A stretch of DNA of 64,000 nucleotides from a virus. Lineage: Duplodnaviria > Heunggongvirae > Uroviricota > Caudoviricetes. Under the pieces are notes generated by a model, which worked only from the letters and a program-made list of their open reading frames with translations, was not told the origin of the DNA and made no database searches. Shown one piece after another: positions 644 to 57,153 of this stretch (within the stretch, counting starts at the first letter, position 1; the number at the start of each line of letters is the position of its first letter). The stretch spans positions 79,774-143,773 of IMG/VR virus record IMGVR_UViG_3300013901_000006. One strand, written 5' to 3'. The position numbers and the translations under genes were made by a program.

Positions 644-992
644 TTTTCACCAATCTCATGGTCATCGATATGCTTATATCGAGAAGCAATCTCTTGAGTC
701 TTACCATCGTTCCAGAAGTTAACTCCCACATCTTTAATACCCCTATTTTCATAGTATTTCAAAGGGAATAGACTATACCTTTTATTTATATAATTAAAAA
801 TATAAATAATCTCCATTATAGTCGTTGAACGTCTTTCTTATTATATAAGAAATTTCGCTGCGGATTACCTAATATTTGACGATTTTACCTTACCTTGGTC
901 ATTACCCTTGCCACTATTATATCACTATAATAGCTTGGTTGTCAAATCTCTAAAGGTGTTCCCGCAATTTAGAAGATTTTATGTGAGCCTGT

Positions 993-30891: not shown

Positions 30892-32328
30892 TTAGATTGT
30901 ATACTTTTCCTCGATATAATCAACCAACTCTCCGCCATCTTCAACGTACTTAAGCATCTTAAATACATTGTCGTTGAGCGCGGTCATTAGATGCACATCA
31001 GGATTGTTCGAATTCACAATCTGAGTATGGTAATTTCCAAGGTCAAAGCTATAGAGAGTCGTGCGGCCATAGTTAGCGCAATACTCGTTATAAGAATACA
31101 TTGCCTTATCATATCCCACAGTAGGCCAAAAATATGAACGCTTATCCATTACCTGCATATCAGATACAACAAAAATGCGGTCATAATTCTTATTGCGAAT
31201 CATACCGAAAGCCGGAGCAATATCAGTACCATATCCGCAATGGTCATTATCACACATTTCACGAATAATCTGGAAAGGACCGGAAGCCTTAGCAAACGTC
31301 TTCGTCTTTGCATCGTTACCGAACTTCACAAAGTCACAGTTCCCATTGATATATAGGGCTGCTGCGTAGCAAGCCCCAACTTCCTTGATGGAAAGAGAAG
31401 ACTTGTCGCCATACATACCATCCATGGAGCCAGAAACGTCAAGCATGATAATAGAAGTTCCATCCAACTCAGGCATATTGCCGCAAGCAATACGGAAAGC
31501 GGTATCAAGAGCTGTAATCACTGCCATATTCTGAACACTGAGATTTCGATAGGCCGTATAAATCTGATAAGGGAACACAAGAGACTTGCGGATAGAGACT
31601 TCATTGATAATCTGGTCAACAAGATTCTTCTTGACCCAAACGTCATCAACGTCACTGTGTAGAATGTTGCTGAGATTGCGGATAAGGGCAAGATAACCAA
31701 GTTTATGTCCCTCTACAAGTTCCTTCCAACTAGTGGTACCAGTAGAAATACCAACTTCCCAAGTCTCAGGGGCAGCAAGAGTACCAGCCTTATACTTATC
31801 AATCGTCTCGCTATGAGCATGAGTAATATTGATAAGGTCATACATATTATACTGCTTACCGTTCATCTTATACTTAGCAATCTGATAATCACCAAGAGAA
31901 GAAAGATAATCAGCACAGCCACGAACCAGCGCATGAGAACGCCTGCCGCCAAGCATATCTACAGCTGCAAAAATCTCAGCTGGATCATCCGCGCGATGCA
32001 TGAAATTCTTATAGAACTCACGCTTCTGCTCAAACTTCTCAAAATTCAGGCGAGCTGCGACAAGCTGAGAAGCCGAACGCATACCAAGCTCATTACGCGC
32101 AAACTTAGCGCACTTGGCCGCAAACACAGGACCATAATGCTCAATGATAGCATCAGTCAGCTTGATAAAACGCTCCTGTTGCACATCTGCGGATTCATAG
32201 AAGGTATTACACATCTTAGACGAGAAAAGGAAATTCATCCACTCCTCGACAGGATTCTTTACATAATTAAGCCCACCCTCAAAAGAACGCTCACGAGAGG
32301 GCTTCACATTTTCATTAAACTTTGCCAT
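30892..32328 (-). CDS. rsr: Ro60/Rsr-like protein (TROVE domain + vWA with MIDAS motif)
   Basis: N-terminal SFEGGLNYV / CNTFYES resembles the Ro/Rsr GSDGGTYY region. MIDAS motif LDVSGSMDG at ~aa 300. 478 aa. Confidence 0.6.
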   Translation of the reverse strand: MAKFNENVKPSRERSFEGGLNYVKNPVEEWMNFLFSSKMCNTFYESADVQQERFIKLTDAIIEHYGPVFAAKCAKFARNELGMRSASQLVAARLNFEKFEQKREFYKNFMHRADDPAEIFAAVDMLGGRRSHALVRGCADYLSSLGDYQIAKYKMNGKQYNMYDLINITHAHSETIDKYKAGTLAAPETWEVGISTGTTSWKELVEGHKLGYLALIRNLSNILHSDVDDVWVKKNLVDQIINEVSIRKSLVFPYQIYTAYRNLSVQNMAVITALDTAFRIACGNMPELDGTSIIMLDVSGSMDGMYGDKSSLSIKEVGACYAAALYINGNCDFVKFGNDAKTKTFAKASGPFQIIREMCDNDHCGYGTDIAPAFGMIRNKNYDRIFVVSDMQVMDKRSYFWPTVGYDKAMYSYNEYCANYGRTTLYSFDLGNYHTQIVNSNNPDVHLMTALNDNVFKMLKYVEDGGELVDYIEEKYTI

Positions 32329-32494
32329 AACTACTTCTCTTTCTCTTGGAAGGAAATATACTTATAGGAATTAAATACTGGTATCTATGATTTGAACAAA
32401 AGCACATTTAAGAAGAAAGGATACCTTTATATTTAATTCCTATAGGCATGTTTCCACACCTAAAATAAAATAAAATGAGGAGATGTTAAAAACA

Positions 32495-32600
32495 GTACAC
32501 AAAAGATACCGACCTACCCGACGCAATGTCTGCGAAGGACGGAGTTGAACCGCCTTTCCGCATTTTCAAGGTGAAGTAACTGTTTTTCTATCACTCATTT
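32495..32600 (-). ncRNA. Y-RNA-like tRNA-like small RNA (copy R) with own promoter and terminator, adjacent to rsr
   Basis: 5' box AUGAGUGAUAGAAAAACAGUUACUUC shared with two other copies. T-arm GGCGG-UUCAACU-CCGUC. Terminal helix AAAAACAGU(U)AC / GU-ACUGUUUUU followed by a U-rich tract. Confidence 0.5.
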
Positions 32601-35194: not shown

Positions 35195-36133
35195 TTAGTT
35201 GTTACTATTGGTCAGAATATATTCACGAATAGCCGCTTGCGCCAAACCTTTAATCTTTGCAAGATTAACACTGGTAACCTTCTTCTTACGATAAAAGTCC
35301 CAGAAATTCTCTTCCATAAGCTCGTTCAAAACTTTTTGCATACACATACCGAAGAATTTACCATTGCGGCAATCAATTTCATCCATATCGAGAGCGATAA
35401 GAACTTTATTAACTTCCTTTTCGACAAAAGCAGGCGTACAAAACTTATCTACAAACTCTTTTTCAGTATCATTTTGGTTGACATTGGTCTTCTTAGTGGT
35501 TTTATTATGATGCCATTCATCGCGTACAATTTTAGCAACTTGTGGATTTCCCCACGGGTCACGAAGAACTGGATAAGTTTTAATAACAATACCTTCACCA
35601 ATAATACCAGAAGGAAGATTAAAAGTACAAGAATCTACATACTTATCAACATCATCCCAAGTCATATTATCAATGCGGGCAATGATAGGAACGCAACGAT
35701 GATAAATTTTACTTACTACTGGATACCATACATCATAATCAATATATTCACCGCTGTCAGTATCAAAAACATCAAAGATAAAGAAACCACCTTCAATATA
35801 CTGTTTAATGCTACCGACAAACTTGCGGCCATCCACTCCGCCAAGCCATTCACCATAAATAATATAGCTAGGATTGTCAAGCAACCAATCCTTTAAAGCA
35901 TTGATTTCAGTGTCATTAGAATTTGTAATATAGTATGCAAATCCAGCATTATCCTTCTCAATAGAAATCTCACGGGTACGAGAGCCACACGCAATTTTGC
36001 CCTCATCATCTACCCAAATGCTGGAATTGCTTCCGTCCATTTTCGGCTGAATTAAAACCGACTTACCAATGAAACCCTGAACTTCATTGCGAGTAGAGCG
36101 TTCAAGATGAATGTACTTGTTGAAATGTGACAT
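35195..36133 (-). CDS. RNA ligase, Rnl2-like nucleotidyltransferase
   Basis: Motif I KMDGSN (Rnl2 K-x-[DH]-G-x-N). Motif IV EGIVIK, then a VAKIVRD motif-V-like segment. Confidence 0.5.
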   Translation of the reverse strand: MSHFNKYIHLERSTRNEVQGFIGKSVLIQPKMDGSNSSIWVDDEGKIACGSRTREISIEKDNAGFAYYITNSNDTEINALKDWLLDNPSYIIYGEWLGGVDGRKFVGSIKQYIEGGFFIFDVFDTDSGEYIDYDVWYPVVSKIYHRCVPIIARIDNMTWDDVDKYVDSCTFNLPSGIIGEGIVIKTYPVLRDPWGNPQVAKIVRDEWHHNKTTKKTNVNQNDTEKEFVDKFCTPAFVEKEVNKVLIALDMDEIDCRNGKFFGMCMQKVLNELMEENFWDFYRKKKVTSVNLAKIKGLAQAAIREYILTNSNN

Positions 36134-37083: not shown

Positions 37084-37605
37084 ATGAAGCACACGTTAAT
37101 TATGATGGCAGGCCCTGCGAGTTCAGGAAAATCTGTATTTGCAAAAATCATTAAAGATTCACATGATGATTGCGTTGTAGTTTCATATAAACAGATGGCA
37201 AAAGCAGCACTGGTCGCAAAAGAACCGCAACATTATGTAGATAAGCGATATATCGAAGTATTAAATAATATGCTTGAAACACATGAATATGTAATTGCTG
37301 ATAATTACAATATCAATGCAAATGAACGCAAAAAAATATTTGACAATATAAATATTGATAAATATAATATTATTTGTGTTTGGGTGGAAACGCCTCTTAA
37401 TGTTGCATTGAAGCGAAATGCACAACTAGATGAAAAGTGGCGAAGGTCGGAAGACTCTATAAAGCAAATGTATAAAATTAAAGTATCGCCGCAAGAACAA
37501 GAGCCTTTTAAAAAAGTAATTTTCATTTCAGAGCAAATGAATTATGCTATTGGAACAGATACAATGGAAATTCAAAATATTTTAGATACTCTTAAGGCTC
37601 TATAG
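37084..37605 (+). CDS. Polynucleotide-kinase-like P-loop kinase (T4 Pnk kinase-domain family), copy 1
   Basis: MMAGPASSGKSVFA Walker A. IADNYNINANERKKIF and VWVETPLNVALKRNAQ align to T4 Pnk ISDTNLNPERRLAW / VFDVPWTELVKRNSKRG. Confidence 0.5.
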   Translation: MKHTLIMMAGPASSGKSVFAKIIKDSHDDCVVVSYKQMAKAALVAKEPQHYVDKRYIEVLNNMLETHEYVIADNYNINANERKKIFDNINIDKYNIICVWVETPLNVALKRNAQLDEKWRRSEDSIKQMYKIKVSPQEQEPFKKVIFISEQMNYAIGTDTMEIQNILDTLKAL

Positions 37606-39538: not shown

Positions 39539-40108
39539 ATGATTACTCAATATTCTCATGGTATCAATACAGAAGCAAATCCAAGCAACAATGTAATTGA
39601 TATTTATAAAAAGTGGAGCGCGGAAGAAGTGCGGGCTAGCCTTCAACCAAATCGTACTCCACTTGTAAATATTTGTCTCAATCTTGACCATGGATTCAAC
39701 GTTGGTTCTATTATTCGAGCATCAAATTGTTTCCTTGCCAAGGAGACTTACGTGGTTGGCCGCAAACGCTTTGACGCTCGTGGAGGTGTTGGATCCAAAA
39801 AATACGAACGCGTATATCATGCAGATACATTAGATGAAGTCCTTGAAGTTCTGCACCCTCTTGGATATACCATTTTTGCCGTAGATAATGTAGAAGAATA
39901 TAATCCGCAGAATATTTTTGATGTTGATATTCCAATGAAGTCTGCTTTCGTATATGGAAGTGAGGGTAATGGTTTGCCAAAAGATGCTATTGACAAATGC
40001 GATGAAATGGTATATATTAGGCAATATGGAAGTATTCGCTCACTAAATGTGGCACAAGCTGCCGCATGTTGTATGATGGAATATTCTAGACGTTATCAAA
40101 TGAGGTAG
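39539..40108 (+). CDS. SpoU/TrmH-family RNA 2'-O-methyltransferase (SPOUT)
   Basis: NICLNLDHGFNVGSIIRASNCF, YGSEGNGLPKDAI, and IRQYGSIRSLNVAQAAACCMMEY match SPOUT motifs I-III. Confidence 0.65.
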   Translation: MITQYSHGINTEANPSNNVIDIYKKWSAEEVRASLQPNRTPLVNICLNLDHGFNVGSIIRASNCFLAKETYVVGRKRFDARGGVGSKKYERVYHADTLDEVLEVLHPLGYTIFAVDNVEEYNPQNIFDVDIPMKSAFVYGSEGNGLPKDAIDKCDEMVYIRQYGSIRSLNVAQAAACCMMEYSRRYQMR

Positions 40109-40377: not shown

Positions 40378-40821
40378 ATGGCTGAGTTGACTAAGAGCGA
40401 CTATAGATACTTTGAAATGGCACATAGGGAAGCTGAAAAATCTACCTATGATACCTTTCATCTTGGATGCGTTCTAGTCTATAAAGGTCACATTATCGGT
40501 CGCGGAAGCAATTCCTCTAAAACTTCACCTATTCAGGCCAAATATAATCAGTTCAGGCAGTTCCGATATGGGCCGCAATTAGTAGCACATAAAAACCATG
40601 CTGAAATCAGCGCTATTAAGAGTGTACCTTATCAGGTAGATAAAGAGACTGATTGGTCAAAGGTTTCATGTTACATTTATCGTATCTCTAAGGGTCGAAA
40701 AAAGAATGTGGGTTTAGCTCGACCTTGTGAGGGATGTTTTCAGGCACTTATCGATAAAGGTATTCGTAACATCTACTATACTACAAATAATGGCTATGCG
40801 TATGAGGAAATTCTTGTATAA
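40378..40821 (+). CDS. CDA-fold deaminase (dCMP/cytidine/tRNA-adenosine deaminase family)
   Basis: HAE...PCEGC zinc-binding signature (HxE, PCxxC). Confidence 0.6.
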   Translation: MAELTKSDYRYFEMAHREAEKSTYDTFHLGCVLVYKGHIIGRGSNSSKTSPIQAKYNQFRQFRYGPQLVAHKNHAEISAIKSVPYQVDKETDWSKVSCYIYRISKGRKKNVGLARPCEGCFQALIDKGIRNIYYTTNNGYAYEEILV

Positions 40822-41625: not shown

Positions 41626-42561
41626 ATGAATGAAGTAGATATGCTCCGCAATGATTCTCTTGTGCGGGAAAAGGATTTGGGAAACGGAATCTCGTCTTTC
41701 AATTTTTCCAATAAGTGCTTTTGGGATAAGAAGTGGACTACGGAGTCAATCAAGGCTCGCGGATTATTCTGTGATGTTAAAAATAACAATGTTGTTGCAC
41801 GTTCTTATAATAAGTTTTTCAATATTGGAGAGCGTCCTGAGACTGAAATGCGGAATCTTCGTACTACTTTTGCATATCCTGTGCAGGCATATGTGAAGTA
41901 TAATGGTTTTTTGGCAATCGTCTCAGCAGATAAGGATAATCCCGATAAGTTGTTCATCGCATCCAAGAGCACTAATGAAGGCCAGTTTGCGGGATACATT
42001 AAAAACATTATTAACTCTATGTTGAGCGAAGATGCGCAAAAGGATTTTGCAAACACCTTGCATAATCTTAATATCTCTGCTGTGTTTGAGTGTATTGACC
42101 AAGCGCATGACACGCATATTGTAGAATATTTCAGTCCGCATTTAGTTATGCTTGATTGTATTTATAATTCCTTTGAATATAAGCACATGTCATATGAGAA
42201 TATGAGAGAATTTGCATGTAAGTTTGGTTTTTTGTTTAAGGTTCGTTTTTCCATTTTAACAGATTGGGAAGATTTTACAAGTTTTATTGATTGGCATAAG
42301 GATGATAATGGGATTGAAGGATTTGTGTTTGAAGATGCTAATGGGTTCATGGTAAAGTATAAAACTTTATGGTATCGTTACTGGAAGCAGGTGCGTGGCG
42401 TTTTGCAGCAGGTCTGGAACGGACGTGATATTGATTCAATCAAGAATATCAATAACAAGATTAAGCCAGAGCACAAGCAGCCGCTTCTTGATTTCGTAGC
42501 TTCATGCCGCAATCGTGATGCGTGTCCATCAGTAATTGAATTCCGCAACTCTTTATCTTAA
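41626..42561 (+). CDS. RNA ligase of tRNA-ligase (Trl1/KxNG) type
   Basis: Motif I VKYNGF (K-x-N-G). Motif IV IEGFVFE. Motif V VKYKTLWY. 311 aa. Confidence 0.5.
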   Translation: MNEVDMLRNDSLVREKDLGNGISSFNFSNKCFWDKKWTTESIKARGLFCDVKNNNVVARSYNKFFNIGERPETEMRNLRTTFAYPVQAYVKYNGFLAIVSADKDNPDKLFIASKSTNEGQFAGYIKNIINSMLSEDAQKDFANTLHNLNISAVFECIDQAHDTHIVEYFSPHLVMLDCIYNSFEYKHMSYENMREFACKFGFLFKVRFSILTDWEDFTSFIDWHKDDNGIEGFVFEDANGFMVKYKTLWYRYWKQVRGVLQQVWNGRDIDSIKNINNKIKPEHKQPLLDFVASCRNRDACPSVIEFRNSLS

Positions 42562-44796: not shown

Positions 44797-46023
44797 GAAA
44801 GTAGTTGACAATATTTGAAATGTTTGGTAATATATTATTGAAAGTTAAGAAGTGGGCAATTCCAGTAATTGCCGCATTAATCGTTGTGGTTGGGGGCCTA
44901 ACAGTATGGGTTAACACTACCTTCCAAGGTCAACTTTGGTTCGACAAAATGACAAATCAAAGAACTCCACCTCCTGAGAATCACTGTATCAGGGTGTATT
45001 CCGCAGGAGAGCTCGTTGGAGACTATGATGGACATTATTCTGTAGAACAATTTGATGACCACATTGTTCTTATCAATCATGATAAACATGATGATAAAAC
45101 TGAAATCTACGGTGAAACCGCAGTGATTGTAGACGAAGATTAAAAGGAGAAAATTAATGGTTGAATCTTATGGTATGAATTTTAATGCTGCACTAACGCA
45201 GGATAAAGATGGTAAGGTGTCTCTTGGTGTACACGTGACCGATTCGGACGGCCTGGATATTGACAAGAATGAATCTGGCAGCGATATTCCAAAAGTCATT
45301 GAAAATCTTTGCAGTGGTCTGATTAAAGACCTAACAGTTGTATCTAATGGCCGCAAAGCCAAAAAGGAGAAGGAAGATGCGGAGAAGCGTCGTGCGGCCA
45401 AAGCTGAGAAGCAGAAGAAGATTGCAGACCTTAAAGCACAGGCAGAAGCTCTACAAAAAGAGATTGCCGCACTGGAATCTGAAAAAACGTCCTCCACGCC
45501 CAAGACTACAGTGAGTGCTCTAGATTCACTTTCCAAGGACTTTGAATCTCTGCTGGACGATTCAACTATGAAAATTTTCCGCAAGATGCTGTTCTAAAAT
45601 TTATCTTGCAAACCCATATATAAAGTTATATAATATACTTAAAGAAAAGGAAGGAGATACAGGATGTTCGTAGGTGACAAGTTTTATAACATTGATACGG
45701 AACGCGACTTTGACGCTTGCTTGAAAGAGAACGGTTTCGACCCTGCGGAAATTAAAAACTATGCTATCTCCTTCCACGTTTCTAATCGCGCATGTTGCGT
45801 AGAAGGCCTACTTGGTGACGATTGGGCGGAAGTATCTCATGCGATTCAACAGGAGTGTGATGACTTGCGGAATGAGGTGGATAACCTTGAATCTCGTTCT
45901 CGCAAAGGCAATACTCGTGCTGACATTGCTAAACGTCTTAGCACTATTCTTGAGAATATTTATGACCTTGCTTTATCGAATCAAATTTATGACCCCGATG
46001 AACTTTAAGTAATATTTTTTTCT

Positions 46024-46052
46024 TGACAAAAAGGAAAATTAACTATATAATA
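46024..46052 (+). promoter_or_regulatory. Consensus TTGACA-17-TATAAT promoter feeding a ~100-nt transcript ending at the 46120-46165 terminator
   Basis: TTGACA aaaaggaaaattaacta TATAAT. No ORF before the downstream hairpin and T-run. Confidence 0.55.
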
Positions 46053-46119
46053 TATTTGAAATCTTTGGACAAAGATGTATAATTTTGTTGTACAACTTTT
46101 TATATTATATAGTGGTGCT

Positions 46120-46165
46120 AGAGCCTACAGTGTTCCAGAAATATTGTAGGCTCATTTTTCTTTTG
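46120..46165 (+). terminator. Intrinsic terminator (GAGCCTACA...TGTAGGCTC + TTTTTCTTTT)
   Basis: 9-bp perfect stem followed by a T-run. Confidence 0.6.
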
Positions 46166-46170
46166 GCAAA

Positions 46171-46240
46171 GCCAGTTTAGTATAACAGTAATACATCGCT
46201 CTTGTAAAGCGAAGCAGACAGGGCAGCACTGTCAACTGGC
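46171..46240 (+). tRNA. tRNA-Thr (anticodon TGT)-like gene with non-canonical D- and T-loops
   Basis: Perfect acceptor GCCAGTT/AACTGGC + TCCA. D stem GTAT/ATAC. Anticodon stem TCGCT/AGCGA with loop CTTGTAA. T stem GACAG/CTGTC, but the T loop is GGCAGCA and the D loop lacks GG. Confidence 0.45.
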
Positions 46241-46481
46241 TCCAATATTTTAGTATTCTATGAGGATAATATAAAAGGAGATTCGACCACTCCAAGCAAT
46301 GCACTTGTATTATTCTCATAGAGTGCTAACCTTAGACACTCTCCAAGTGATAGTAGAGCGGAATTTGACCCCGTCTGTGCTATCCCAAGTTATAAGCGAT
46401 TCGGGCAGTCGCTATACAAATTTGCCCACTTTAGATTATTAGATAGGCTACATAGGGAGTAGCTACCTCATGGAAAAGTGA

Positions 46482-46537
46482 ATATCCACCACCTGCCTAT
46501 CTATTGTATTTAGTGGATAGGAAAGTGTGGATATATG
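46482..46537 (+). promoter_or_regulatory. Stable hairpin sequestering the RBS and start codon of the HNH endonuclease gene
   Basis: ATATCCAC...CCTATC-loop-GATAGG-AAAGT-GTGGATAT. The 3' arm ends at the ATG (46535). SD-like AGGAAAG lies inside the 3' arm. Confidence 0.5.
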
Positions 46538-47260
46538 CTTAAATGTATTATTTGTGAAAAAGATTTTGTTATTAGACCAAATGGTAAAATGGGCGGGGCA
46601 AATCGTCAAATTTGTTATAATTGCTTGCCTGAAGATATTAGTTCAAAACAAGAAAGACGAAAAGCTACGAATTTTCTTATTAGTCAAAAGCTTCAAAAAG
46701 AAAAAACAAGTCGTGGCTGCGATATTTGTGGTTACAATAGTTGCGGAGCAGCATTAGAGTGGCATCATTATAATAGCGATAAAGATTTTAATCCAAGTGC
46801 TATTCCAGTATGCAATTGGGAAACATTGAAGAAATATCGTAAAGAAACTCAAAAATGTCAATTATTATGTGCAAATTGCCATAGAGAAATACATTATAAA
46901 AAATATTGGGGAAATTTTATTATGCCAATTGATAGTGGCCAAAGTGAAAATTTCAGAAAAGAAGTTTGTGATTATTACAAAGAAAACCTAAACATAAATA
47001 AAACTAGCGTTTATTTCCATAAAAATCGCGAAACAATTAAAAATATTCTGCTGTATTGTGGAGTTAAGATAACTAAAGAAGACAATCATAAATCTGTCAG
47101 TATGATAAATATTAAAACAAATGAAATTATTAAAACATTTTACAGTTTAAATGAAGCTAGTGATTTTTTAAATAAAGGTAAAGGTGGCATTACCCATATA
47201 TCTGATGCTTGTTCCGGGAAAAGAAAGACTGCTTACGGGTACAAATGGCGTTATGAATAA
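46535..47260 (+). CDS. HNH homing endonuclease
   Basis: Zn-ribbon CIICEK...CYNC. HNH core EWHHYNSDKDFN...CANCHREIHYKKY. Confidence 0.7.
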   Translation: MLKCIICEKDFVIRPNGKMGGANRQICYNCLPEDISSKQERRKATNFLISQKLQKEKTSRGCDICGYNSCGAALEWHHYNSDKDFNPSAIPVCNWETLKKYRKETQKCQLLCANCHREIHYKKYWGNFIMPIDSGQSENFRKEVCDYYKENLNINKTSVYFHKNRETIKNILLYCGVKITKEDNHKSVSMINIKTNEIIKTFYSLNEASDFLNKGKGGITHISDACSGKRKTAYGYKWRYE

Positions 47261-47343
47261 TATTTTTCATTTTTACTTTTAAAAATTATTTGACAAATTA
47301 TCAAATAATTTGATATAATATAGTTAACAAAAGGAGAAACACT

Positions 47344-47500
47344 TCTTTTGAACATAGGGTTCCTAAACCAAAAGAATTAGGTGCGGCTTAAGGTTTCAGA
47401 CTACAGATAAAAGAAACTTAGTGATTAAATAAATGATGCGAAAGAACGTCTGAAAAATCACGATTAAAATATGGTTTGCGGTTATCCTAAAACCGCACCT
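47344..47500 (+). ncRNA. Candidate structured small RNA (~160 nt) closed by a 10-bp long-range helix and U-tract
   Basis: UUAGGUGCGG (47374-83) pairs with CCGCACCUAA (47488-97). Internal helices UUUCAGAC/GUCUGAAA and GUGAU/AUCAC. Followed by AAAUUUUUC. Promoter at about 47293-47321. Confidence 0.4.
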
Positions 47501-47857
47501 AAAATTTTTCTTGACTTCTAGTTGAGAATAATGTACAATATATTTAGAAGAAAAGGGGGGAAAAGGATAGTCAACAGTACCATCAACAAACCAGTGACCC
47601 TGCGGCGAATATTAATGAGCCAATACCCATAAGATGTAATATCGAGTACGCTGTTAGGTTGATTAAATTTTTCTTCCAAATAAGTTTAAACGCCAAGAGA
47701 AAGAGGTAAAATGGCACAGTCTATCGAGTCTATGGAGCAGCGTTATCAGATGCTTATTAACCGAAAGGGTAAGAATTCAGAAAATGTAGGCATTATGCGC
47801 AAACTTCGCCGCAAGATTAACAAGGCTAAGTCAGGTATCATTCTTTCTTAATTTTAT

Positions 47858-47980
47858 ATGCGTGATAGGGATTCAGTTACTTCATATCAATAGCAGAGAT
47901 ATAGGCTGTCGGTTCGAATCCGACCATCTACGGATGTAGCTCAACAGGTAGAGCGATGTCATTTTATAGTCTGAATCCAA
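47858..47980 (+). ncRNA. Y-RNA-like tRNA-like RNA, copy A (closing helix + T-arm + acceptor-like hairpin + D-arm)
   Basis: 5' box AUGCGUGAUAGGGAUUCAGUUACUUC. GGAUUCAG (47869-76) pairs with CUGAAUCC (47971-78). Enclosed: GUCGG-UUCGAAU-CCGAC, CUACGGAUGUAG, and GCUC-AACAGGUA-GAGC. Confidence 0.5.
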
Positions 47981-48204
47981 GATTTCCGCATATTTTTTCT
48001 TGACTTTTGGTTATATATATTATATAATATATTTAGTTCAAAGGAGATAACATGAAATACTGCATTTGCCGTGAAAAAACTACGCATTGCCTGTCTATTC
48101 GAGTTGATACTGACTGCTCGCCTGTACGCTTTGATGTACTTTCCATTCATGACACTTTCGAAGAGGCAGATGCGGCACTTCGTTTTTATCTTGATTAATC
48201 TATT

Positions 48205-48290
48205 TTATAGATAGATTAATTTGAACATTCCGCAGCCAGAGCCAATCTGGACCGCCGCATACTTGAAAGGAAGCGGGTTTGAATGTTTTA
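48205..48290 (+). ncRNA. Candidate small structured RNA between a 48-aa ORF and tRNA-Lys
   Basis: Terminal pairing GAACAUUC/GAAUGUUU encloses hairpins CCAGA-gccaat-UCUGG and CCGC-N14-GCGG. Speculative. Confidence 0.25.
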
Positions 48291-48291
48291 T

Positions 48292-48364
48292 GCGCCCTTA
48301 GCTTAGTTGGTAAAGCGGTGGACTCTTAATCCAAAGACCGTCAGTTCGAATCTGACAGGACGCA
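48292..48364 (+). tRNA. tRNA-Lys (anticodon CTT), two non-Watson-Crick pairs
   Basis: Acceptor GCGCCCT/AGGACGC (C4·A69). D GCTT-AGTTGGTA-AAGC. Anticodon stem GTGGA/TCCAA (G27·A43) with loop CTCTTAA. T arm GTCAG-TTCGAAT-CTGAC. Confidence 0.5.
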
Positions 48365-48379
48365 CCTATTTTATTTCGC

Positions 48380-48452
48380 TCGTCTGTAGTTCAGCTGGTA
48401 GAACATTTGGCTGTTAACCAAAATGTCGTAGGTTCGAGTCCTACCGGACGAG
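48380..48452 (+). tRNA. tRNA-Asn (anticodon GTT)
   Basis: Acceptor TCGTCTG/CGGACGA. D GTTC-AGCTGGTA-GAAC. Anticodon stem TTTGG/CCAAA with loop CTGTTAA. T arm GTAGG-TTCGAGT-CCTAC. Confidence 0.7.
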
Positions 48453-48465
48453 CAAAATAAAATAT

Positions 48466-48494
48466 TTGACAAAATCATTTCGGTAGTATATAAT
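48466..48494 (+). promoter_or_regulatory. TTGACA-17-TATAAT promoter for a ~150-nt non-coding transcript
   Basis: TTGACA aaatcatttcggtagta TATAAT. No ORF until 48683. Confidence 0.5.
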
Positions 48495-48499
48495 ATAAA

Positions 48500-48655
48500 T
48501 ATAAAATAACAAGTCTTCAAGAATCTTAACTCATACGGTTTGGCCGTCGATAGAGGAACTACTAAGGACGGGACACCTGAATGCTAGCTAATACAGGGAG
48601 CAGACAGCCAGTATTGTTCTTGATGTAATCGAATGAGCTATCTTGTTGTTTTATA
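48500..48655 (+). ncRNA. Candidate structured small RNA (~150 nt)
   Basis: Ends pair (AUAACAAG / CUUGUUGUUUU) followed by a U-tract. Internal helices CCGUC/GACGG, CUCAU/AUGAG, GCUAGC. Confidence 0.35.
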
Positions 48656-49349
48656 TTTATATTATTGGTCGAAAGGTTTCAAATGAAATTATATCTGAAA
48701 CACTATACTAACAAAATTTTATGGTCAGAGCCAAAAGATGATGATGAAGCATATAAAGATATTCAAAATTGGTTAACAGAACATTATCCAATTAATCATT
48801 ATATGCGGCATTGGGTAGATAATGCTGGTGTTCATTGGATTGATTTTGGTTCGCACACAGATTTCTTTTGCATTGAAGGAGAGTAGGCAATGTCTTACAA
48901 CAAGGAAGAAGATTTGAAGTTGAAATACGCTTATATTCCCGATGATGCGGCAAATGCCCCTGCTTCTAAAAAGAAGAAGCCGTCTCCTAAGAAAGCCAAC
49001 CATAAACATAATTATGATAAAAGTATTATCATCAATTATTATGATAAATATACTGGTAAGTGGACCTATTCATATAGGAATATCTGCACTGTTTGCGGCC
49101 GCATTGGTGATTTTAAAGATAAAGATGGAATCATCGCAAAGACTTTCCCGCACATCGGTACTTGTTGGTTTGGCTTTTCTGTTGCTTTTGGATATAATGC
49201 AGAATTTGAGGAGTTTACCGAATGGTCAAAAACTTGGTATCCTGTAATTGTTTGGAAAGACTATCAGCCTTTATCAGATAAGTTTATTCCTAACGAGTTT
49301 TTTGATGAACTTAAAATCGGAACAGATAAAGTAGATTAATAATGTACCT

Positions 49350-49434
49350 CGGGAGTTGATGGAATTGGCATACATAGCGGCCTCAAAAGCCGTCGGTTAT
49401 TGTAACCATACGAGTTCGAATCTCGTACTCCCGA
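49350..49434 (+). tRNA. tRNA-Leu (anticodon CAA), class II with long variable arm, CCA encoded
   Basis: Acceptor CGGGAGT/ACTCCCG-A-CCA. D loop GAATTGGCATA. Anticodon stem GCGGC/GCCGT with loop CTCAAAA. Variable arm GGTTA-TTG-TAACC. T arm ACGAG-TTCGAAT-CTCGT. Confidence 0.7.
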
Positions 49435-49442
49435 CCAGAACT

Positions 49443-49525
49443 GCTACGGTATCCCATTAAAGACATGGACCGGCCTGTAAAATCGGTACCTTAAGGTTGA
49501 CTAGGAGCGTTACCTAGACGTAGCA
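49443..49525 (+). tRNA. tRNA-Tyr (anticodon GTA)-like class II gene with non-canonical T-loop, CCA encoded
   Basis: Acceptor GCTACGG/ACGTAGC (G7·A66). Anticodon loop CTGTAAA is identical to bacterial tRNA-Tyr. Variable arm ACC-TTAA-GGT. T stem CTAGG/CCTAG but loop AGCGTTA. D loop lacks GG. Confidence 0.4.
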
Positions 49526-49541
49526 CCAATTGTATTTTATA

Positions 49542-49616
49542 ATGCGTGACAGAAAATCAGTTACTTCTATTTTAAAAATAAGATATTGGTTCGATTCCAA
49601 TTACCGCATAAAAACT
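49542..49616 (+). ncRNA. Y-RNA-like tRNA-like RNA, copy B (minimal: closing helix + hairpin + T-arm)
   Basis: 5' box AUGCGUGACAGAAAAUCAGUUACUUC. GAAAAUCAGUU (49552-62) pairs with AACUGAUUUU (49605-14). T-arm AUUGG-UUCGAUU-CCAAU. Confidence 0.45.
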
Positions 49617-49659
49617 GATTTTAGTATTTCCGCGTTTAATTTTTATTCTGGTATGTGAT

Positions 49660-49930
49660 TGAGTTTTAGTTACTTCGAAGATATATATTATGTTTTAAAT
49701 TAATTAAAATTTAAATTAAAAGAACCGGCTTTTACGTCAGACTATAACGGCGTAACAAAAAACTGGTAACTTATACTAAAACTAGTATTTCCATACCTTC
49801 CTCTTTCTCTTGGATAAGTGATTGAACCGCATAGTTACTTCATATTTTTGGTATAATATAATTCAGTCTATGTGATATTATTTCCTTATCTTAAACATTT
49901 TGCGTGATTGGTTCAAGAGATACTTCATAA
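49660..49930 (+). repeat. Three decayed partial copies of the GUGAU...AGUUACUUC 5' box
   Basis: GTGATTGAGTTTTAGTTACTTC (~49657), GTGATTGAACCGCATAGTTACTTCATAT (~49822), TGCGTGATTGGTTCAAGAGATACTTCAT (~49893). None has a following T-arm. Confidence 0.4.
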
Positions 49931-49984
49931 ATATTTTATGACATTTTTTTTTTGCTCTCTCTTGGGCATACTTTCCGCTTTAAT

Positions 49985-50012
49985 AGGGCCTTATGGCCCT
50001 ATTTTTTTTTAT
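49985..50012 (+). terminator. Intrinsic terminator (AGGGCC-ttat-GGCCCT + T9) fused to a TTGACT promoter
   Basis: Hairpin plus T-run directly followed by TTGACT-N17-TATAAT. Confidence 0.6.
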
Positions 50013-50155
50013 TGACTTTATACATACAATATTATATAATATATATAAAGAAAGAGAAAACTCTTATAGTAGCTGTATTGCATCATGTACTAGAGGACTA
50101 TTTGATAATGCATATGGCTATTCTTGGCGATATGTATGACAAGGAGGTGGTGCCA

Positions 50156-50703
50156 ATGTCAATCTGGATTATTTCAGATTCTCATTGAATCAATTTGGTC
50201 ATAAGAATATAATAACGTACTGTAACAAATCTCGTCCTTTCGACACTGTTGAGGATATGAACGAAGCAATTATCAATAGATGGAATGACCGCATTTCTCC
50301 TGATGATATTGTATATCATCTTGGTGATGTTTGTATGGGACAACTTGATACAATCGATAAGTACCTTCCTCGACTGAATGGTCATGTTACTCTCATTAAG
50401 GGGAACCATGACACGAAGGGCCGCATTGCCCGCATCCAAGAGGTTGTCGGTTGGGAAGTCCTCAACATTGAATGTATCCGCTATAATGATATTAACTTTC
50501 TTATGATGCATGAGAAGTCAGAAGACATGCATGGTAATTCTGAGAATGTCATTCTTTACGGTCATGTTCATGACGCTGCGCCGCATGGTTTGCAGCCTGA
50601 TTGGACATACCATGTTGGACTTGATACTAACAACCTAGCTCCTGTCAACCTCCATGATATTTGGATTGATGTCCTAGAGCAGCGAATTAAGACTGGTGAA
50701 TAA
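50156..50703 (+). pseudogene. Calcineurin-like metallophosphoesterase interrupted by an 8-nt insertion just after the DxH motif
   Basis: AAGGAGGTG RBS then MSIWIISDSH-stop. Out of frame it continues NQFGHKNIITYCNKSRPF...GDV...GNHD...GHVHD. Removing TGAATCAA (50186-93) restores ISDSHFGHKNII, the family consensus. Confidence 0.55.
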
Positions 50704-51534
50704 TGGAAGTTAAGCACAAAGTTCAAAGGATTTGCGGCAATTGCCGATATTATTGGCATAAATCATGTTATCGATTTCCGCCGCAAATTGTTTTGGACTA
50801 TGATTATAATGTGAGGACGGTTCACCCTTCGCCGCAGTCAGGAGACAGATGTGGTGAATGGTCTATTCATCCTAAATTGGAGCAAAAATGAAATGCAAGA
50901 AGATTTGTTGGACTTGTAAGTATATGCGTGGCAGATATACCGATTCGTTCTATGGCGGGTCTATTGGAAATTGCGCATATGATTCTGTAATGTTGGGACA
51001 TTTTGATGAATCAAGAGATAATATGCCGCTTAAAAGCGGTGATGATACTTGCGGCAATTGGGCACCAAACGAATATTTTGCATCTATAGATAATTTTTCC
51101 TAAATTTTATCTTGACTCTTGGGTAATTATATTATATAATATAATTAAAGAAGTTGAGAGAGAGGTTTTGGACATGGACTTCAATATCTGCGCTAACTGC
51201 AAGCATTTTCTTACAACTGATTCTGATTATATGTTTGGACATTGTATCAAGGAGTTTGCTGATGCTGGGTTAGACATTCATGAAATCAAGTCTATGATTG
51301 GACCTATTGGTAATATTCTCGGTGATGATTATATGTGTGCGGATGGTGAGCTCAATGATTAACAATAGTTTCGATGGTTGGACGAAAGAGCAACTTGACC
51401 AGTACAATGAACTTTGTATTGACTATCCGCAATGGGCAGTTGACATGCTTATTGACCTCTATGGCCCAAATGAACTTTTTGACGGTATCGTAATGGACCT
51501 TGAAGAGTACTCTTATATGCTTTAATATTGGAAT

Positions 51535-51607
51535 ACCTGTGTAGCACAATTGGTTAGGGCAGTTGACTTATAATCGACCGATGCGGGTTCAAGTCCCGAC
51601 ACAGGTA
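51535..51607 (+). tRNA. tRNA-Ile (anticodon TAT), unusual
   Basis: Perfect acceptor ACCTGTG/CACAGGT. D GCAC-AATTGGTTA-GGGC. Anticodon stem GTTGA/TCGAC with loop CTTATAA. T arm GCGGG-TTCAAGT-CCCGA (G·A at 49-65). Confidence 0.5.
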
Positions 51608-51790
51608 CCCGACATGGGATAGATAACCAGTGGGGAACTGGGTCCGCCTGCTAAGCGGAACGTACTTGTAAATAATAAGTATCCGGGTCGGAACCGGATT
51701 ATCCCGCCAATGTTTATTCCCGCGCCTATACGCGGTGGCTTTCATGGTAGTGCCGAAAACAACCATTGCGGCAGAATAGGCAACACCGCA
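51608..51790 (+). ncRNA. GC-richer structured RNA (~180 nt) between tRNA-Ile and tRNA-Ser
   Basis: Local hairpins CCGC-cugcuaa-GCGG, UCCGG-gucggaa-CCGGA, CGCG-ccuaua-CGCG, UGCGG-N15-CCGCA. Long-range GGGAUA/UAUCCC. No ORF. Confidence 0.4.
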
Positions 51791-51795
51791 TACTT

Positions 51796-51884
51796 GGAGA
51801 GTTGGCCGAGCTGGTCGATGGCACTTGTCCTGAAAACAAGCAGGCGCTGGTAACGTCTCTAGAGTTCGAATCTCTAACTCTCCG
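51796..51884 (+). tRNA. tRNA-Ser (anticodon TGA), class II, CCA encoded
   Basis: Acceptor GGAGAGT/ACTCTCC-G-CCA. D GCC-GAGCTGGTCGAT-GGC. Anticodon stem CTTGT/ACAAG with loop CCTGAAA (C33). Variable arm. T arm TAGAG-TTCGAAT-CTCTA. Confidence 0.7.
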
Positions 51885-51888
51885 CCAT

Positions 51889-51962
51889 GGTCATGTAGCT
51901 CAGTTGGTAGTAGCAGCGGACTGAAAATCTGCGGGTCGCTTGTTCGATTCAAGCCGTGACCA
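51889..51962 (+). tRNA. tRNA-Phe (anticodon GAA), CCA encoded
   Basis: Acceptor GGTCATG/CGTGACC-A-CCA. D GCTC-AGTTGGTAG-TAGC. Anticodon stem GCGGA/TCTGC with loop CTGAAAA. T arm GCTTG-TTCGATT-CAAGC. Confidence 0.75.
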
Positions 51963-51974
51963 CCAATAAATACC

Positions 51975-52010
51975 CTGTAGGGCAACTTCTTTTGAGGTTG
52001 CCCTATTTTT
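51975..52010 (+). terminator. Intrinsic terminator after the tRNA cluster, fused to the next promoter
   Basis: TAGGGCAAC-ttcttttga-GGTTGCCCTA + T7, then TTGACT-17-TATAAT. Confidence 0.65.
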
Positions 52011-52074
52011 TTATTGACTTTTACCGCATAATCATATATAATATATATAAAGAAAGCCAAGAGAAGGAGAAAAG

Positions 52075-52557
52075 ATGGCTACTCTTTATATTCTCGCAGC
52101 TATTCCAGCCGCAGGAAAGACAACTTGGGCGCATGAGCATCATTCTGAGCTTGATGCCAAGATTATCTCGCGCGATAACATTCGTTTCAACTATATGGCA
52201 AATGACCCTGATTTTCTTCCTTCCATGGATTATTTCAAGTATGAGAAGGATGTCGAGCGATGCTTCTATGACCAGATTAATTGGGATTTGTGTGTAAATG
52301 ATATGAACGTCATCGCTGATGCCACTCATATCTCTTGGAAGAGTTTAAAGAAAACTGTTGAGCATTGCGGCAAAAACGCGGACAAGGTTATTCTTGTATA
52401 CTTCAATCGTGGTCTTGATATTGCCTTGCCGCAGAACGCGAAGCGTGATGGCGTTGAGCATGTTCCCGAGGAAGTAATCAAGCGTATGTGGAAGAACCGC
52501 TATCAGCCTGCTCGTGCAAAGGCCGCAGGTCTTGTTGATGAATATATGATTGTGTAG
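52075..52557 (+). CDS. pnk: Polynucleotide 5'-kinase (T4 Pnk kinase-domain homolog), copy 2
   Basis: [22 protein letters not shown] aligns to the T4 Pnk [38 protein letters not shown], and [12 protein letters not shown] match NRDDYRQ, ISDTNL, and VPIDVLRSMYKSM. No phosphatase domain. Confidence 0.65.
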   Translation: [160 protein letters not shown]

Positions 52558-53327
52558 GCAACAAATGGATGATAACGTGAAATATACCTTACGGCAAATC
52601 AAAAAGGCCGCAAAGGAAATGCTGAATCTCAATATGCCTATTGGCTTTGAGTACTGTGTTTACGATATGCCGTTGGCTGATTGCCAAGAAATCTGCCGCA
52701 AACTTGAGAATTTTGGTTTTCATGTTTCTATTGGTCATCGTCTTGGCAGTGAGAATACGATTATAGTAAGAGAGAAAGAGTGAATATGTGTACTTTTAAT
52801 TATCCAGAAAATTACGACCAGTTTACCCAAGAGCAGCAAGATAGCATCCTGAGCTGGTTCAATACTACGAAAGAGATTGAACGTGGGCTGATTTCATATT
52901 CTACCAAGAGTAAGAATGAAAATGAGTTGAAAGCCTTTTCAGACAGGCGTGAGAAATATGAAGTGCGGCTAAGGGCGGCTCAGTCGATTCTGCGTACAAT
53001 GGGCGTGTTCGTTGAATATAATTGGCCTGGACATGAACACGAATATTTCCTAGCCACACGAGCTGACGCAGAGCTGTATCGCAAGGAGCATGAATAATGG
53101 CCGCATGTGTTCATGGCGAAGTGTGCCGCGCATGGATGGAAAGAACTAAACAGAAAGCTCCGTTGAGCAATACATGTCCTTTTAATTGTCCTTTATACGA
53201 GCGCAAACCTTCAATATCGGAATACTGTCCAAATCGGCACGCATATCCTAAAGATATTTTCGGCACGCCTATTTTTTATTGTTAGAAAAGTAATTTATGA
53301 TTGCGAATGACGCACGCACCATAGCAT

Positions 53328-55610: not shown

Positions 55611-57153
55611 TTTTCTTGCTCTTGGTCATAATATGTTATATAATATATTTAGAAAGAGAGAGAGGAAAACAAATGATTGGCGATAAGGTTATGGTTGAGC
55701 AAGCATACGGTATCGTATGCGGTGTAATCTCTGACATTATCTATGATGAAGATTGTGTTGTAATCACTGATACTCGTGGTTGCCGCATCGTTGCAAACTT
55801 CAATGAGATTATCGTTCTTTAGGAGATATTATGTGCAAGTATTGTGATTTCCCTGTCGATAGCAATTCCGCATACATTGATGCAACAGATACATCATGCT
55901 CTGATGGTGGATTCAGCGTAGGGCTGCATCATTCCAACTTTGCAAAAGACTGTGGATATTATATCTTTGGGGAATATTATCCATATGAAGATGAAACTAT
56001 TGACTCTGACCTTGCAAATTCCTTTTCAACACGTAATGGATATTCCCTTGCAATCAACTTTTGTCCGTTCTGTGGAAGGAAACTCAATGTCAACTAAGAT
56101 TTATACGAAGATTCTATCAGCTCTTGAAACGATTGTCTATCAAGAGGGTTGGGTACTCGGTCAATGTTGTTATAATACCAGAAGTGAATTCTATTATCGC
56201 GGATGTAAATTTGTTGTGGTTGTTTGCCCATCGGAAGGACGTGACGTTTTCAAAGTGTATTGTGAATATCATGATGGTAATGACGTAACATATAGTCAGT
56301 TTAGCCGCACATATCTTGGTGAGACTAATGGTGATACAAGCCCTATTCTTACCTTTGCAAATATGCTATTTTCTGATATGGCCCACGAGAGCCGCATCAT
56401 TCGCCGCAAGTTCGATTAATTTTTTCTTGCAATCTATGATATAATATCATATAATATATATAAAGAAAAGGAAGAGATATTAAATCTCCCAAGAGAAAGA
56501 GAAAGTATGCGCTACATGGTTGAATCTGAGCTTTATCAATTTCCCGCATGGAGTGGGGCCAAGTCTCGTCTTGACGATTTGGTAAAGCATCCTGCGGCAT
56601 ATGATATGGTTGCGGGCTACCTTGACATGTGTCAGATGGAAGGCGATGCCTGCGAGCCATGGACTGAAACTGATGTGAATGATTGGCTTTGGTTCGAACT
56701 TGACAACTATCTGTACGAAGAGGGCTTCAAGAACGAAGACGATGAGTGGATTGACGAGGATGATGACTAATGTTTAATCTTTCTATTGGCGATTATTGCA
56801 CTTATTATGGTTTCGCTGGGCAGCATTCACTCGTTAAGATTATTGCTTTTGGATGCGACTATGAATATAACGGATATGTTTGCGTTAAGTTTGTATCCAA
56901 TGGTAATGAGTGCTATGTCCCTGAGAATCAGCTTTGCAAGTATTAAGGAGTATGCATGAAGATTTATCTTATTTGGGATGGTTCGGGTATTATCGGTGGT
57001 TATTCCAGTGAGGGTAAGGCACGTAAAGCACTGAAACAGTATATCATCGACACGGGCGCATGCGAAGAGAAGGATTTTAAAGACAATATGATTGATGACC
57101 TTTCATACGGAATCATCAGTCATCCAATTGACAATCTATGGATTTAAAAAAGG

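Follow-up and report, generated by a model that had tools for sequence, protein, structure and literature searches.

Phage tRNAs with an apparently re-coded elbow, in which A18 and G55 take the place of G18 and U55

Few nucleotides of tRNA are as conserved as G18 and U55 (Psi55). Eukaryotic initiator tRNA-Met has A54 and A60 in its T loop while Psi55 and G18 are kept, and its A54 marks initiator function; the staphylococcal non-proteinogenic tRNA-Gly, which serves peptidoglycan bridges, is without GG and T-Psi-C, for glycine only. We know of no report of A18:G55 covariation in staphylococcal tRNA-Gly. Here we describe two genes, for tRNA-Thr(UGU) and tRNA-Tyr(GUA), in a 64,000-nucleotide stretch of a tailed virus of the class Caudoviricetes (IMG/VR virus record IMGVR_UViG_3300013901_000006, positions 79,774 to 143,773; the whole stretch is referred to as the window), which appear to belong to a mostly viral class of tRNAs with a re-coded elbow, the contact of the D loop with the T loop. 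The class resembles eukaryotic initiator tRNA-Met in the replacement of U54 by A within an otherwise normal T-loop fold; the phage tRNAs are of elongator types, for many amino acids. Like the phage class, tRNA-Pyl and the type II mitochondrial tRNAs are without GG and T-Psi-C, yet they work in translation; neither G19 nor C56 is present in tRNA-Pyl of M. barkeri, whose core is compact, and the type II mitochondrial tRNAs lack the D-loop/T-loop interaction (PMC7609411). Unlike either, the phage class has C56 (a property by which the loops were selected), a G after the position-18 purine, the G53-C61 pair and a specific covariation between positions 18 and 55.

Phage tRNAs have been proposed to sustain translation when host tRNAs are cut, among them a tRNA-Tyr: the described cases are tRNA-Tyr of T5 (against Retron-Eco7/PtuAB, Septu), tRNA-Lys of T5 (against PARIS) and mycobacteriophage tRNAs whose anticodon loops are altered (PMC11555353, PMC13096335). 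The locus described here resembles these in supplying phage isoacceptors from arrays behind strong promoters. It differs in the site of change; the known examples differ by changes to the stem or loop of the anticodon arm or to the variable loop, or simply by dosage, whereas here the changes lie at positions 54, 55, 58 and 18, and escape is only predicted. A threat that reads exactly these nucleotides is represented by two enzymes, which we connect to the locus by an argument from sequence. CbCash (CRISPR-associated Schlafen) cuts 5' of U55, single mutations of U54 or U55 abolish its cutting, and what becomes of phage tRNAs is a question that its authors leave open (PMC13462974); CdiA-CT(E479) cuts between T and Psi (PMC9086364).

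The tRNA genes considered are as follows, where "G55 type" denotes G at position 55.

46171-46244, plus strand: tRNA-Thr(UGU), G55 type (Rfam, fold, homologues)
49443-49528, plus strand: tRNA-Tyr(GUA), class II, G55 type (ARAGORN at an 80% threshold; 37 distinct homologues aligned)
51535-51610, plus strand: canonical tRNA-Ile(UAU) (ARAGORN at default; Rfam, 53.2 bits)
51616-51709, plus strand: tRNA-Ser(GCU), class II, a third variant (relaxed ARAGORN; absent from an earlier note on this DNA)

That earlier note, made from the sequence alone, had described a Thr-like gene at 46171-46240 and a Tyr-like gene at 49443-49525, both with altered D and T loops on perfect acceptor and anticodon arms. 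The positions and the altered loops were borne out for both: the Thr body is followed by U73 (T at 46241) and an encoded CCA (46242-46244), and the Tyr body (49443-49524) by A73 (49525) and CCA (49526-49528). The arms of the Thr gene are indeed perfect, all 21 stem pairs being standard and the minimum-free-energy fold being the cloverleaf. Its acceptor stem is GCCAGTT/AACTGGC (46171-46177/46234-46240), its D arm GTAT-AACAGTA-ATAC, in which the D loop AACAGTA (46184-46190) gives A18 G19 and is without GG, its anticodon arm TCGCT-CTTGTAA-AGCGA (anticodon TGT, 46203-46205) and its T arm GACAG-GGCAGCA-CTGTC, with a T loop (46222-46228) reading G54 G55 C56 A57 G58. The Rfam tRNA model RF00005 matched the Thr gene at 46171-46241 with 44.9 bits against a gathering threshold of 29 (E = 2.5e-6 for the whole window), and ARAGORN at default did not call it.

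For the Tyr gene the same claim stood in part. Its anticodon loop, CTGTAAA with anticodon GTA at 49477-49479, is genuine; its arms are not perfect, as the acceptor (49443-49449/49518-49524) contains a G7.A66 mismatch and the anticodon stem a C31.A39 mismatch and one G.U pair. The T arm is CTAGG-AGCGTTA-CCTAG, the T loop (49506-49512) reading A54 G55 C56 G57 U58; the D loop, ATTAAAGACA, is without GG and carries the motif TTAAAGA, and a long variable arm occupies 49487-49500. Because Rfam gave no match to this gene even at E <= 10, and ARAGORN missed it at default and found it only at the 80% threshold, its reality was established through comparison with homologues.

A search for the exact 17-mer of the Tyr T arm gave 87 stretches of viral contigs, drawn from many metagenomes. 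The majority are genes for Tyr(GUA) that combine the TTAAAGA D-loop motif, the CTGTAAA loop and A73 plus CCA with freely covarying stems; when the search was relaxed in the T stem, this stem too proved to covary, around an unvarying GGAGCGTTACC. In an alignment of 37 distinct Tyr genes (A1), 92.4% of cells were paired in the cloverleaf, as against 63.7% in shuffles, and both sides had changed in 17 of 21 pairs; the covariation score was 0.733, compared with 0.172 for shuffles and 0.10-0.14 for slid partners. The alignment also exposed features of the class as a whole: 7:66 is a conserved purine-purine mismatch in 33 of the 37 genes (A1 columns 7/78; window 49449/49518), and the acceptor stem is followed, after four nucleotides rather than two, by a 3-bp D stem (A1 columns 8-14; window 49450-49456), which is offset by one to two nucleotides from the standard register. 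The standard D-stem register was tried and rejected, just 48.6% of its cells being paired; the shifted 3-bp stem fits.

Homologues of the Thr gene were reached through the Rnl1 protein, a search with which yielded 27 related viral contigs, at about 60% identity or, for three of the 27, at 42-43%. In phages whose Rnl1 is about 60% identical, the Thr gene retains 90-96% identity. Across these relatives its D, anticodon and T loops are unchanged, and its stems vary: the acceptor in a compensatory manner (GCCAGTT/AACTGGC, GCCAGCT/AGTTGGC, GCAGGAC/GTCCTGC), the anticodon stem likewise (TCGCT/AGCGA versus TTGCT/AGCAA), and the T stem in the same way, among GACAG, TAGGG and CAGGG. In a second alignment (A2) of 22 tRNAs of the GGCAG(C/U)A type, 13 for Thr and nine with other anticodons, 96.8% of cells were paired and both sides had changed in 20 of 21 pairs; stems of this class are of the normal 7/4/5/5 lengths. 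A likeness of the Thr gene to tRNA-Thr of crAss001 was considered and set aside, being confined to the D and anticodon arms, and the crAss001 T loop is normal. Two GC-rich tRNA-like genes with anticodon CAT (L040 and L031, from IMG/VR 3300009285) have a T arm identical to that of the window Thr gene; their D arm is very short (GGGTCAGCACCC) and their anticodon stem has 6 bp.

A cloverleaf scan that ignored the sequence of the D and T loops was run over the window and all fetched loci; it required U33 and R37 and returned 652 distinct cloverleaves, and the 18:55 counts were taken among C56 loops only. The 18:55 combination was G:U in 426, A:G in 126 and something else in 15. A D-loop GG was present in 431 of 438 U55 tRNAs and in only 12 of 135 G55 tRNAs, which have AG instead (Fisher p = 4e-101, a value that overstates independence and is not a true probability, because the sequences are related and some were gathered by pattern searches). 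The association recurs in about 28 anticodon types, in three loop types and in very different phages. Those three G55-C56 loop families, AGCRUUA, GGCRGYA and UGCRANU, stand beside the UUC type and beside two families, AUCGUNN and GUCGGAN, that lose U54 only and keep U55; the 54:58 pair is U:A, A:U or G:G. The 18:55 link is independent of 54:58, as U54:A58 with G55 gave no GG and 16 AG, A54:U58 with U55 gave 13 GG and no AG, and G54:G58 with U55 gave three GG and no AG. The 7-nucleotide D loop AAYAGTA differs from the common AAYGGTA solely at position 18, and in one phage group the Tyr T loop is either AGCGTTA or GGCGGTA, positions 54 and 58 changing together over an identical T stem.

Other parts of the elbow appear to be intact. 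Every loop counted has C56 (a condition of the count), and the purine at position 18 is followed by a G, which would permit G19 to pair with C56; G53-C61 shows no exception in A1 or A2, and the main loop types have a purine at 57. Among G55 tRNAs with 7-nucleotide D loops, positions 16 and 59 were C:C in 14, A:U in nine, U:U in seven and U:A in five, an association which suggests that a contact of the D loop with the T loop is retained. The Thr and Tyr genes thus lack the G18G19 and U54U55C56 signature of RF00005 while having C56 and a candidate G19, and they are equally unlike an elbow-less type without the 18-55 and G19-C56 contacts, since C56 is present (by selection), 18:55 covaries and 16:59 is associated. 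The earlier note had taken the altered loops for a coordinated loss of the elbow interaction. The covariation of 18:55 and the invariance of G53-C61 point instead to a compensated swap of G18:U55 for A18:G55, and argue for an elbow that was rebuilt rather than lost.

Several properties bear on whether such molecules would work as tRNAs. Both the Thr and Tyr classes have a 7-bp acceptor stem, a 3-4-bp D stem and 5-bp anticodon and T stems, all covarying, and 7-nucleotide anticodon loops with U33 and a purine at 37 (CTTGTAA and CTGTAAA); T33 shows no variation in A1 or A2 and CTGTAAA none or next to none in A1, though the search patterns fixed these loops. Judged by the aminoacylation identity rules of E. 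coli, the discriminator base suits the anticodon in 118 of the 135 G55 tRNAs. Thus A73 is found in 28 of 28 for Tyr, U73 in nine of nine for Cys, G73 in nine of nine for Asn and in five of five for Ser(AGA); Gln(CUG) has G73 in six of six and U1:A72 in five of six, and Thr has G1:C72 in 16 of 17 and U or A at 73 in 15 of 17. The acceptor identity features of Thr, G1-C72/C2-G71, likewise follow the anticodon. CCA is encoded in 75% of G55 and 67% of UUC tRNAs (p = 0.09), a difference that gives no support to the idea that, as CCA-adding enzymes read the elbow, an encoded CCA would be required in G55 tRNAs. Neither a canonical tRNA-Tyr nor a canonical tRNA-Thr(UGU) was found in the window by ARAGORN at default or by Rfam.

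The Rnl1 relatives, which were not picked by their loops, offer a further comparison. In them Gln(CUG), Tyr, Cys, Thr(UGU) and Ser(AGA) consistently have tRNAs of the G55 type, while most of those for Asn, Arg(UCU), Ile(UAU), Leu, Phe and Lys are canonical. The Thr slot, which follows a conserved hairpin and T-run, holds either a G55 Thr(UGU) of one of two acceptor types or a canonical class I Thr(UGU), so that the G55 allele stands in for an ordinary tRNA-Thr. A third occupant of the slot is a Thr(UGU) whose T loop is canonical and whose variable arm is long and class II-like, unusual for a tRNA-Thr (L010 14824-14910; also L011, L013, L015, L016, L018, L020 and L022). Taken together, these data make it very probable that the Thr and Tyr genes of the window, and in a milder form Ser(GCU), encode functional tRNAs with a compensated elbow, and to this extent the suggestion of specialised tRNAs in the earlier note holds.

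Relatives also encode other unusual members. A G55 class II tRNA-Ser has the anticodon AGA, with A34 (L007 19666-19754; also L010, L013, L019 and L046). In bacteria A34 is normally limited to tRNA-Arg(ACG), where it is deaminated to inosine; the phage group with Ser(AGA) also encodes a deaminase (window 40378-40821). A G55 tRNA-Cys(GCA) with U73 and no encoded CCA (L007 5126-5199; also L006, L008, L012, L014, L015, L017, L021, L023 and L028) has a complementary leader and trailer (TCAAGA/TCTTGA), lengthening the acceptor helix by about 6 bp, and Thr alleles of the GCAGG type have a similar 4-bp extension (CTGA/TCAG); such complementarity may be an unusual signal for precursor processing. Apparent G55 tRNAs with a UUA, ochre-suppressor-like anticodon in L007, L014 and L028 were rejected as reverse-strand shadows of the Gln(CUG) gene.

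Outside viral contigs, the Tyr T-arm 17-mer had 17 matches in 596 Gb of species-representative genomes, all in contigs of metagenome-assembled genomes (MAGs); several are not tRNA-like, and one is flanked by terminase and portal genes. Among the matches is a tRNA(CAT) that has AGCGGGT/ACCCGCT as its acceptor, TAAGTAT as its D loop and the T arm CTAGG-AGCGTTA-CCTAG (L148, L150, L154-L157 and L159), in MAG contigs labelled Beckwithbacteria, Patescibacteria or Pseudomonadales. In L148 it lies near ftsH and a glycosyltransferase-like gene, tentative assignments made by eye from the protein sequences. The class is, on these matches, predominantly and not solely viral. A BLAST search of 50,697 deposited phage records revealed a single clear member, a Tyr gene that Vibrio phage CHOED carries without annotation at 56553-56634 of KJ192399; right after it lies an apparent tRNA with the loop CTTTGGA, likewise unannotated. 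In Acinetobacter phage vB_AbaM_DLP3 (PQ034586.1, L168) an unannotated tRNA-Asn(GTT)-like gene, at about 1170-1250 of the locus, has the T loop ATCGTTA (A54:U58, U55 kept) and a D loop with GG, and overlaps the hypothetical coding sequence ADLP3_154. No description of the class (AGCGUUA or GGCAGCA loops, G55 with A18, unusual phage T arms) was found in the literature, in a library that was incomplete, and the word 'phage' is absent from a 2020 review of non-canonical tRNAs (PMC7609411). As far as could be found, this structural variant of tRNA is undescribed.

What such an architecture would offer a phage is suggested by the nucleotides replaced, since these are the ones that T-loop nucleases read. 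The phage Thr, Tyr and Ser tRNAs would be charged and would decode ACA, UAY and AGY for the phage. Removal of U54-U55 may have been selected because it would blind enzymes that read the UUC/T-Psi-C motif, with T-loop-cutting nucleases as the prime candidate threats; the phage would then keep its supply of selected isoacceptors while host tRNAs were destroyed, and the variants would incidentally be blind to TrmA and TruB. The earlier note had named tRNA-Tyr as a target of some anticodon nucleases. It is indeed a documented target of defence, rescuable by phage tRNA-Tyr (PMC11555353, PMC13096335), and serves reasonably as context beside the tRNA-repair genes of the window, namely those for Rnl1, the Rnl2-like ligase, two AAA_33 kinases and a phosphoesterase; the part altered here is the T loop and the anticodon loop is unchanged. 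We regard nuclease evasion as a tentative candidate for the selective reason, falling somewhat short of even probability. That these are working phage tRNAs of a widespread, mostly viral class, with an intact but re-coded elbow that would be blind to such nucleases, is our best overall explanation, and one in which belief and doubt are about balanced.

Several observations weigh against it. The main weakness is that canonical UUC tRNAs (for Asn, Arg, Ile, Leu, Phe and Lys) are present in the same phages, so that a general T-loop nuclease would still cripple the phage; the explanation therefore needs isoacceptor-selective nucleases or a partial rescue. The occurrence of one T arm with many anticodons could reflect common descent or gene conversion and not repeated selection. 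The cloverleaf scan contains a few false positives, such as reverse-strand shadows of real tRNAs, and the window copy of the Tyr gene has C31.A39 where the 99%-identical contig L001 has a T-A pair. Lastly, the tRNA(CAT) group lies near ftsH or an integrase gene in bins resembling the candidate phyla radiation (CPR), so that the class is perhaps not strictly viral; the tRNA(CAT) is possibly a cellular A18:G55 tRNA of CPR bacteria, and its place beside ftsH led us to drop strict virus specificity.

The sharing of the CTAGG-AGCGTTA-CCTAG T arm by many anticodons in very different phages would also be expected if the elbow were a near-isosteric lineage effect of no specific benefit, one that a phage tRNA lineage acquired on a single occasion or on a few, that moved among phage tRNA arrays through horizontal transfer, switches of anticodon and gene conversion, and that is tolerated since phage tRNAs can do without full host modification. 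The fixed set of G55 isoacceptors in each phage group, the canonical tRNAs in the same arrays and the many homing-endonuclease genes there fit such a history. Yet at least three T-loop solutions remove U55 (AGCRUUA, GGCRGYA, UGCRANU) and further loops remove U54 alone (AUCGUNN, GUCGGAN), which looks like repeated loss of the UU dinucleotide and not one frozen accident; the loops are, moreover, far more conserved than the stems, and 596 Gb of cellular genomes almost lack the T-arm 17-mer. We therefore hold a purely neutral origin to be unlikely, if the strongest of the competitors. Less probable again is that the altered T-arm DNA escapes, or travels with, the free-standing HNH or GIY-YIG homing enzymes of phage tRNA arrays, A18 being a secondary repair at the RNA level. 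An HNH plus NUMOD1 gene (46535-47260) does lie 290 nt 3' of the Thr gene, the HNH family is the most recurrent open reading frame (ORF) near variant tRNAs (20 of 91 loci outside the set derived from Rnl1 and Thr patterns), the Thr slot is replaced like a cassette with differing flanks, and SegB-driven dynamics of tRNA regions are documented in T-even phages (PMC13096335). Against this, HNH genes adjoin canonical and variant tRNAs alike, so that no specific tie to the variants could be kept; immunity needs no specific conserved replacement loop, and the convergence of three loop types on G55-C56 is left unexplained.

Two further accounts would deny the genes an ordinary role. The earlier note had offered anticodon-stem-loop decoys, and a decoy for anticodon nucleases, or a charged tRNA diverted from EF-Tu and the ribosome in the manner of the staphylococcal cell-wall tRNA-Gly, would agree with the fully canonical anticodon loops, with tRNA-Tyr as a known nuclease target and with the RNA-repair and Ro60-like genes nearby. 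A stem-loop decoy has no use for the discriminators, CCA and acceptor identity pairs that are conserved here, the discriminators following the anticodon and CCA being usually encoded; nor does this account sit well with four covarying stems, one architecture shared by about 28 anticodon types, interchangeable G55 and canonical alleles in the Thr slot, the failure to find a canonical Tyr or Thr(UGU) in the window, C56 in every loop counted (by selection) and G53-C61 invariant in both alignments. We judge it very improbable. That the genes are degenerate pseudogenes or chance cloverleaves might be thought from their absence from default ARAGORN output, the failure of Rfam on the Tyr gene and the two mismatches in the window Tyr copy; invariant loops and compensating stems across dozens of divergent phages refute this, and its probability is negligible. 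The reading of these genes as working tRNAs with a rebuilt elbow thus remains the preferred one.

The remaining claim of the earlier note, a tRNA-Ile with anticodon TAT at 51535-51607, was correct, and this tRNA is structurally ordinary: its anticodon lies at 51569-51571, its T loop is TTCAAGT and its D loop has GG. A tRNA-Ile(UAU) with a canonical T loop recurs in eight related loci. Of the codons in the window ORFs, AUA makes up 12% of those for Ile, ACA 34% of those for Thr, and UAU plus UAC about 5.5% of all codons. The neighbouring Ser(GCU) gene has the T loop GTCGGAA (51687-51693), with G54:G58 and U55 kept, a normal D loop with GG, the anticodon GCT (51650-51652), G73 plus CCA and a fold z of -2.56; the Rfam tRNA model did not report it, and relaxed ARAGORN alone found it. 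Ser(GCU) genes of relatives, matched to it by anticodon, have T loops ATCGTAT, GTCGGAT or of the canonical TTC type. ARAGORN at default called seven tRNAs in the window. The other features of the arrays are these.

46023-46083, plus strand: sigma-70-type promoter matches in tandem, one of 12/12 and one of 11/12, upstream of the Thr gene
46121-46163, plus strand: hairpin and T-run, ending about 8 nt before the Thr gene and preceding the Thr slot in all relatives examined
46535-47260, plus strand: HNH plus NUMOD1 endonuclease gene, 290 nt 3' of the Thr gene
48466-48494, plus strand: 12/12 promoter match
49350-49437, plus strand: canonical tRNA-Leu(CAA), ending 5 nt 5' of the Tyr gene
51112-51140, plus strand: 11/12 promoter match

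With tRNA-Leu adjoining, the Tyr gene sits within a tRNA array. We infer two transcription units, one from the promoter at 48466-48494 to a terminator-like hairpin at 49982-50003, with two ORFs, tRNA-Leu, tRNA-Tyr and RNAs resembling Y RNA, and one from the promoter at 51112-51140 to a terminator-like hairpin at 51977-52006, with small ORFs and tRNAs Ile, Ser(GCU), Ser(UGA) and Phe. Immediately 5' of the Thr gene, 46056-46165 is a short promoter-to-hairpin unit, and between the Thr gene and the HNH ORF 46245-46534 comprises about 290 nt of non-coding sequence; part of the latter (agtgctaa-cttagacactctccaagtga...) is found again 3' of the Thr slot in relatives with GCAGG-type or canonical Thr alleles. 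Rfam gave no matches for 46056-46165 or 46245-46534.

The window, at about 35% GC, is phage-like, with minus-strand replication genes up to about 36 kb and, from about 36.5 kb, a plus-strand region of early type with many near-consensus TTGACA-N17-TATAAT promoter matches. IMG/VR contig 3300014039_000031 is 98-99% identical to it across the aligned stretch; a megablast of 45000-53000 against deposited phages gave no matches and hence no close deposited relative. Nine genes for RNA repair and modification, the first nine below, are densely grouped in the window, which also contains two GIY-YIG genes and a group I intron.

29931-30818, minus strand: RlaP nucleotidyltransferase
30892-32328, minus strand: TROVE/Ro60-like protein
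35195-36133, minus strand: Rnl2-like ligase
37084-37605: first AAA_33 kinase, a weak tRNA-ligase-kinase match
39539-40108: SpoU 2'-O-methylase
40378-40821: cytidine/deoxycytidylate-type deaminase
41626-42561: T4 Rnl1-type ligase
50185-50703: metallophosphoesterase
52075-52557: second AAA_33 kinase
26755-27711 and 21846-22718, minus strand: two GIY-YIG genes
750-1078, minus strand: group I intron (Rfam)

At the 5' end of the metallophosphoesterase gene (50061-50247), the window has 187 nt where the 99%-identical contig L001 has 96 nt; the window gene reads MSIWIISDSH-stop and resumes in another frame as FGHKNI..., and the gene of L001 is intact (MSVWVVSDTHLNH...). The difference may reflect replacement of a cassette accompanied by a frameshift; alternatively the window gene may be a pseudogene, or its assembly may be wrong.

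The window also contains a family of elements resembling Y RNA, with the stem motif GTGA-N(6-14)-(A/T)TACTTC ... TTTCCGC.

47858-47992, plus strand: Y-RNA-like element
49535-49640: Y-RNA-like element
about 49650-49800: Y-RNA-like element
about 49815-49900: Y-RNA-like element
49895-49985, plus strand: Y-RNA-like element
about 32450-32600, minus strand: Y-RNA-like element

The element at 47858-47992 folds as a long stem with the T arm GTCGG-TTCGAAT-CCGAC and a D arm, and without an anticodon arm. Rfam matched YrlA at 47884-47972, weakly (31.8 bits against a threshold of 69) and apart from the Thr and Tyr genes; in the Y RNA-like tRNA mimic (YrlA, RF02553) a Ro-binding stem bears a T arm, an acceptor-like stem and a D arm and no anticodon arm, whereas anticodon arms and CCA ends are present in the Thr and Tyr genes. 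Just upstream of the TROVE/Ro60-like gene there is one copy, and relatives have two to seven copies per locus, mostly five to seven. The whole looks like a phage Ro60 and multi-copy Y-RNA system.

The class comprises more than 100 distinct tRNA sequences, from contigs of dozens of metagenome datasets and with about 28 anticodon types, and standard annotation overlooks such genes, as with the Tyr gene of CHOED and the Asn gene of DLP3, which lies under a 'hypothetical protein'. It would represent a second way to build the tRNA elbow, in which G18 and U55 are replaced together. It is possible, if doubtful, that phages maintain and exchange a parallel A18:G55, non-U54 tRNA architecture for most amino acids as a structure-level counter-defence against T-loop-cutting immune nucleases. 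If so, these tRNAs would keep the L-shape while being invisible to readers of T-Psi-C such as prokaryotic Schlafens and related toxins, and would provide a natural template for nuclease-resistant or modification-orthogonal tRNAs.

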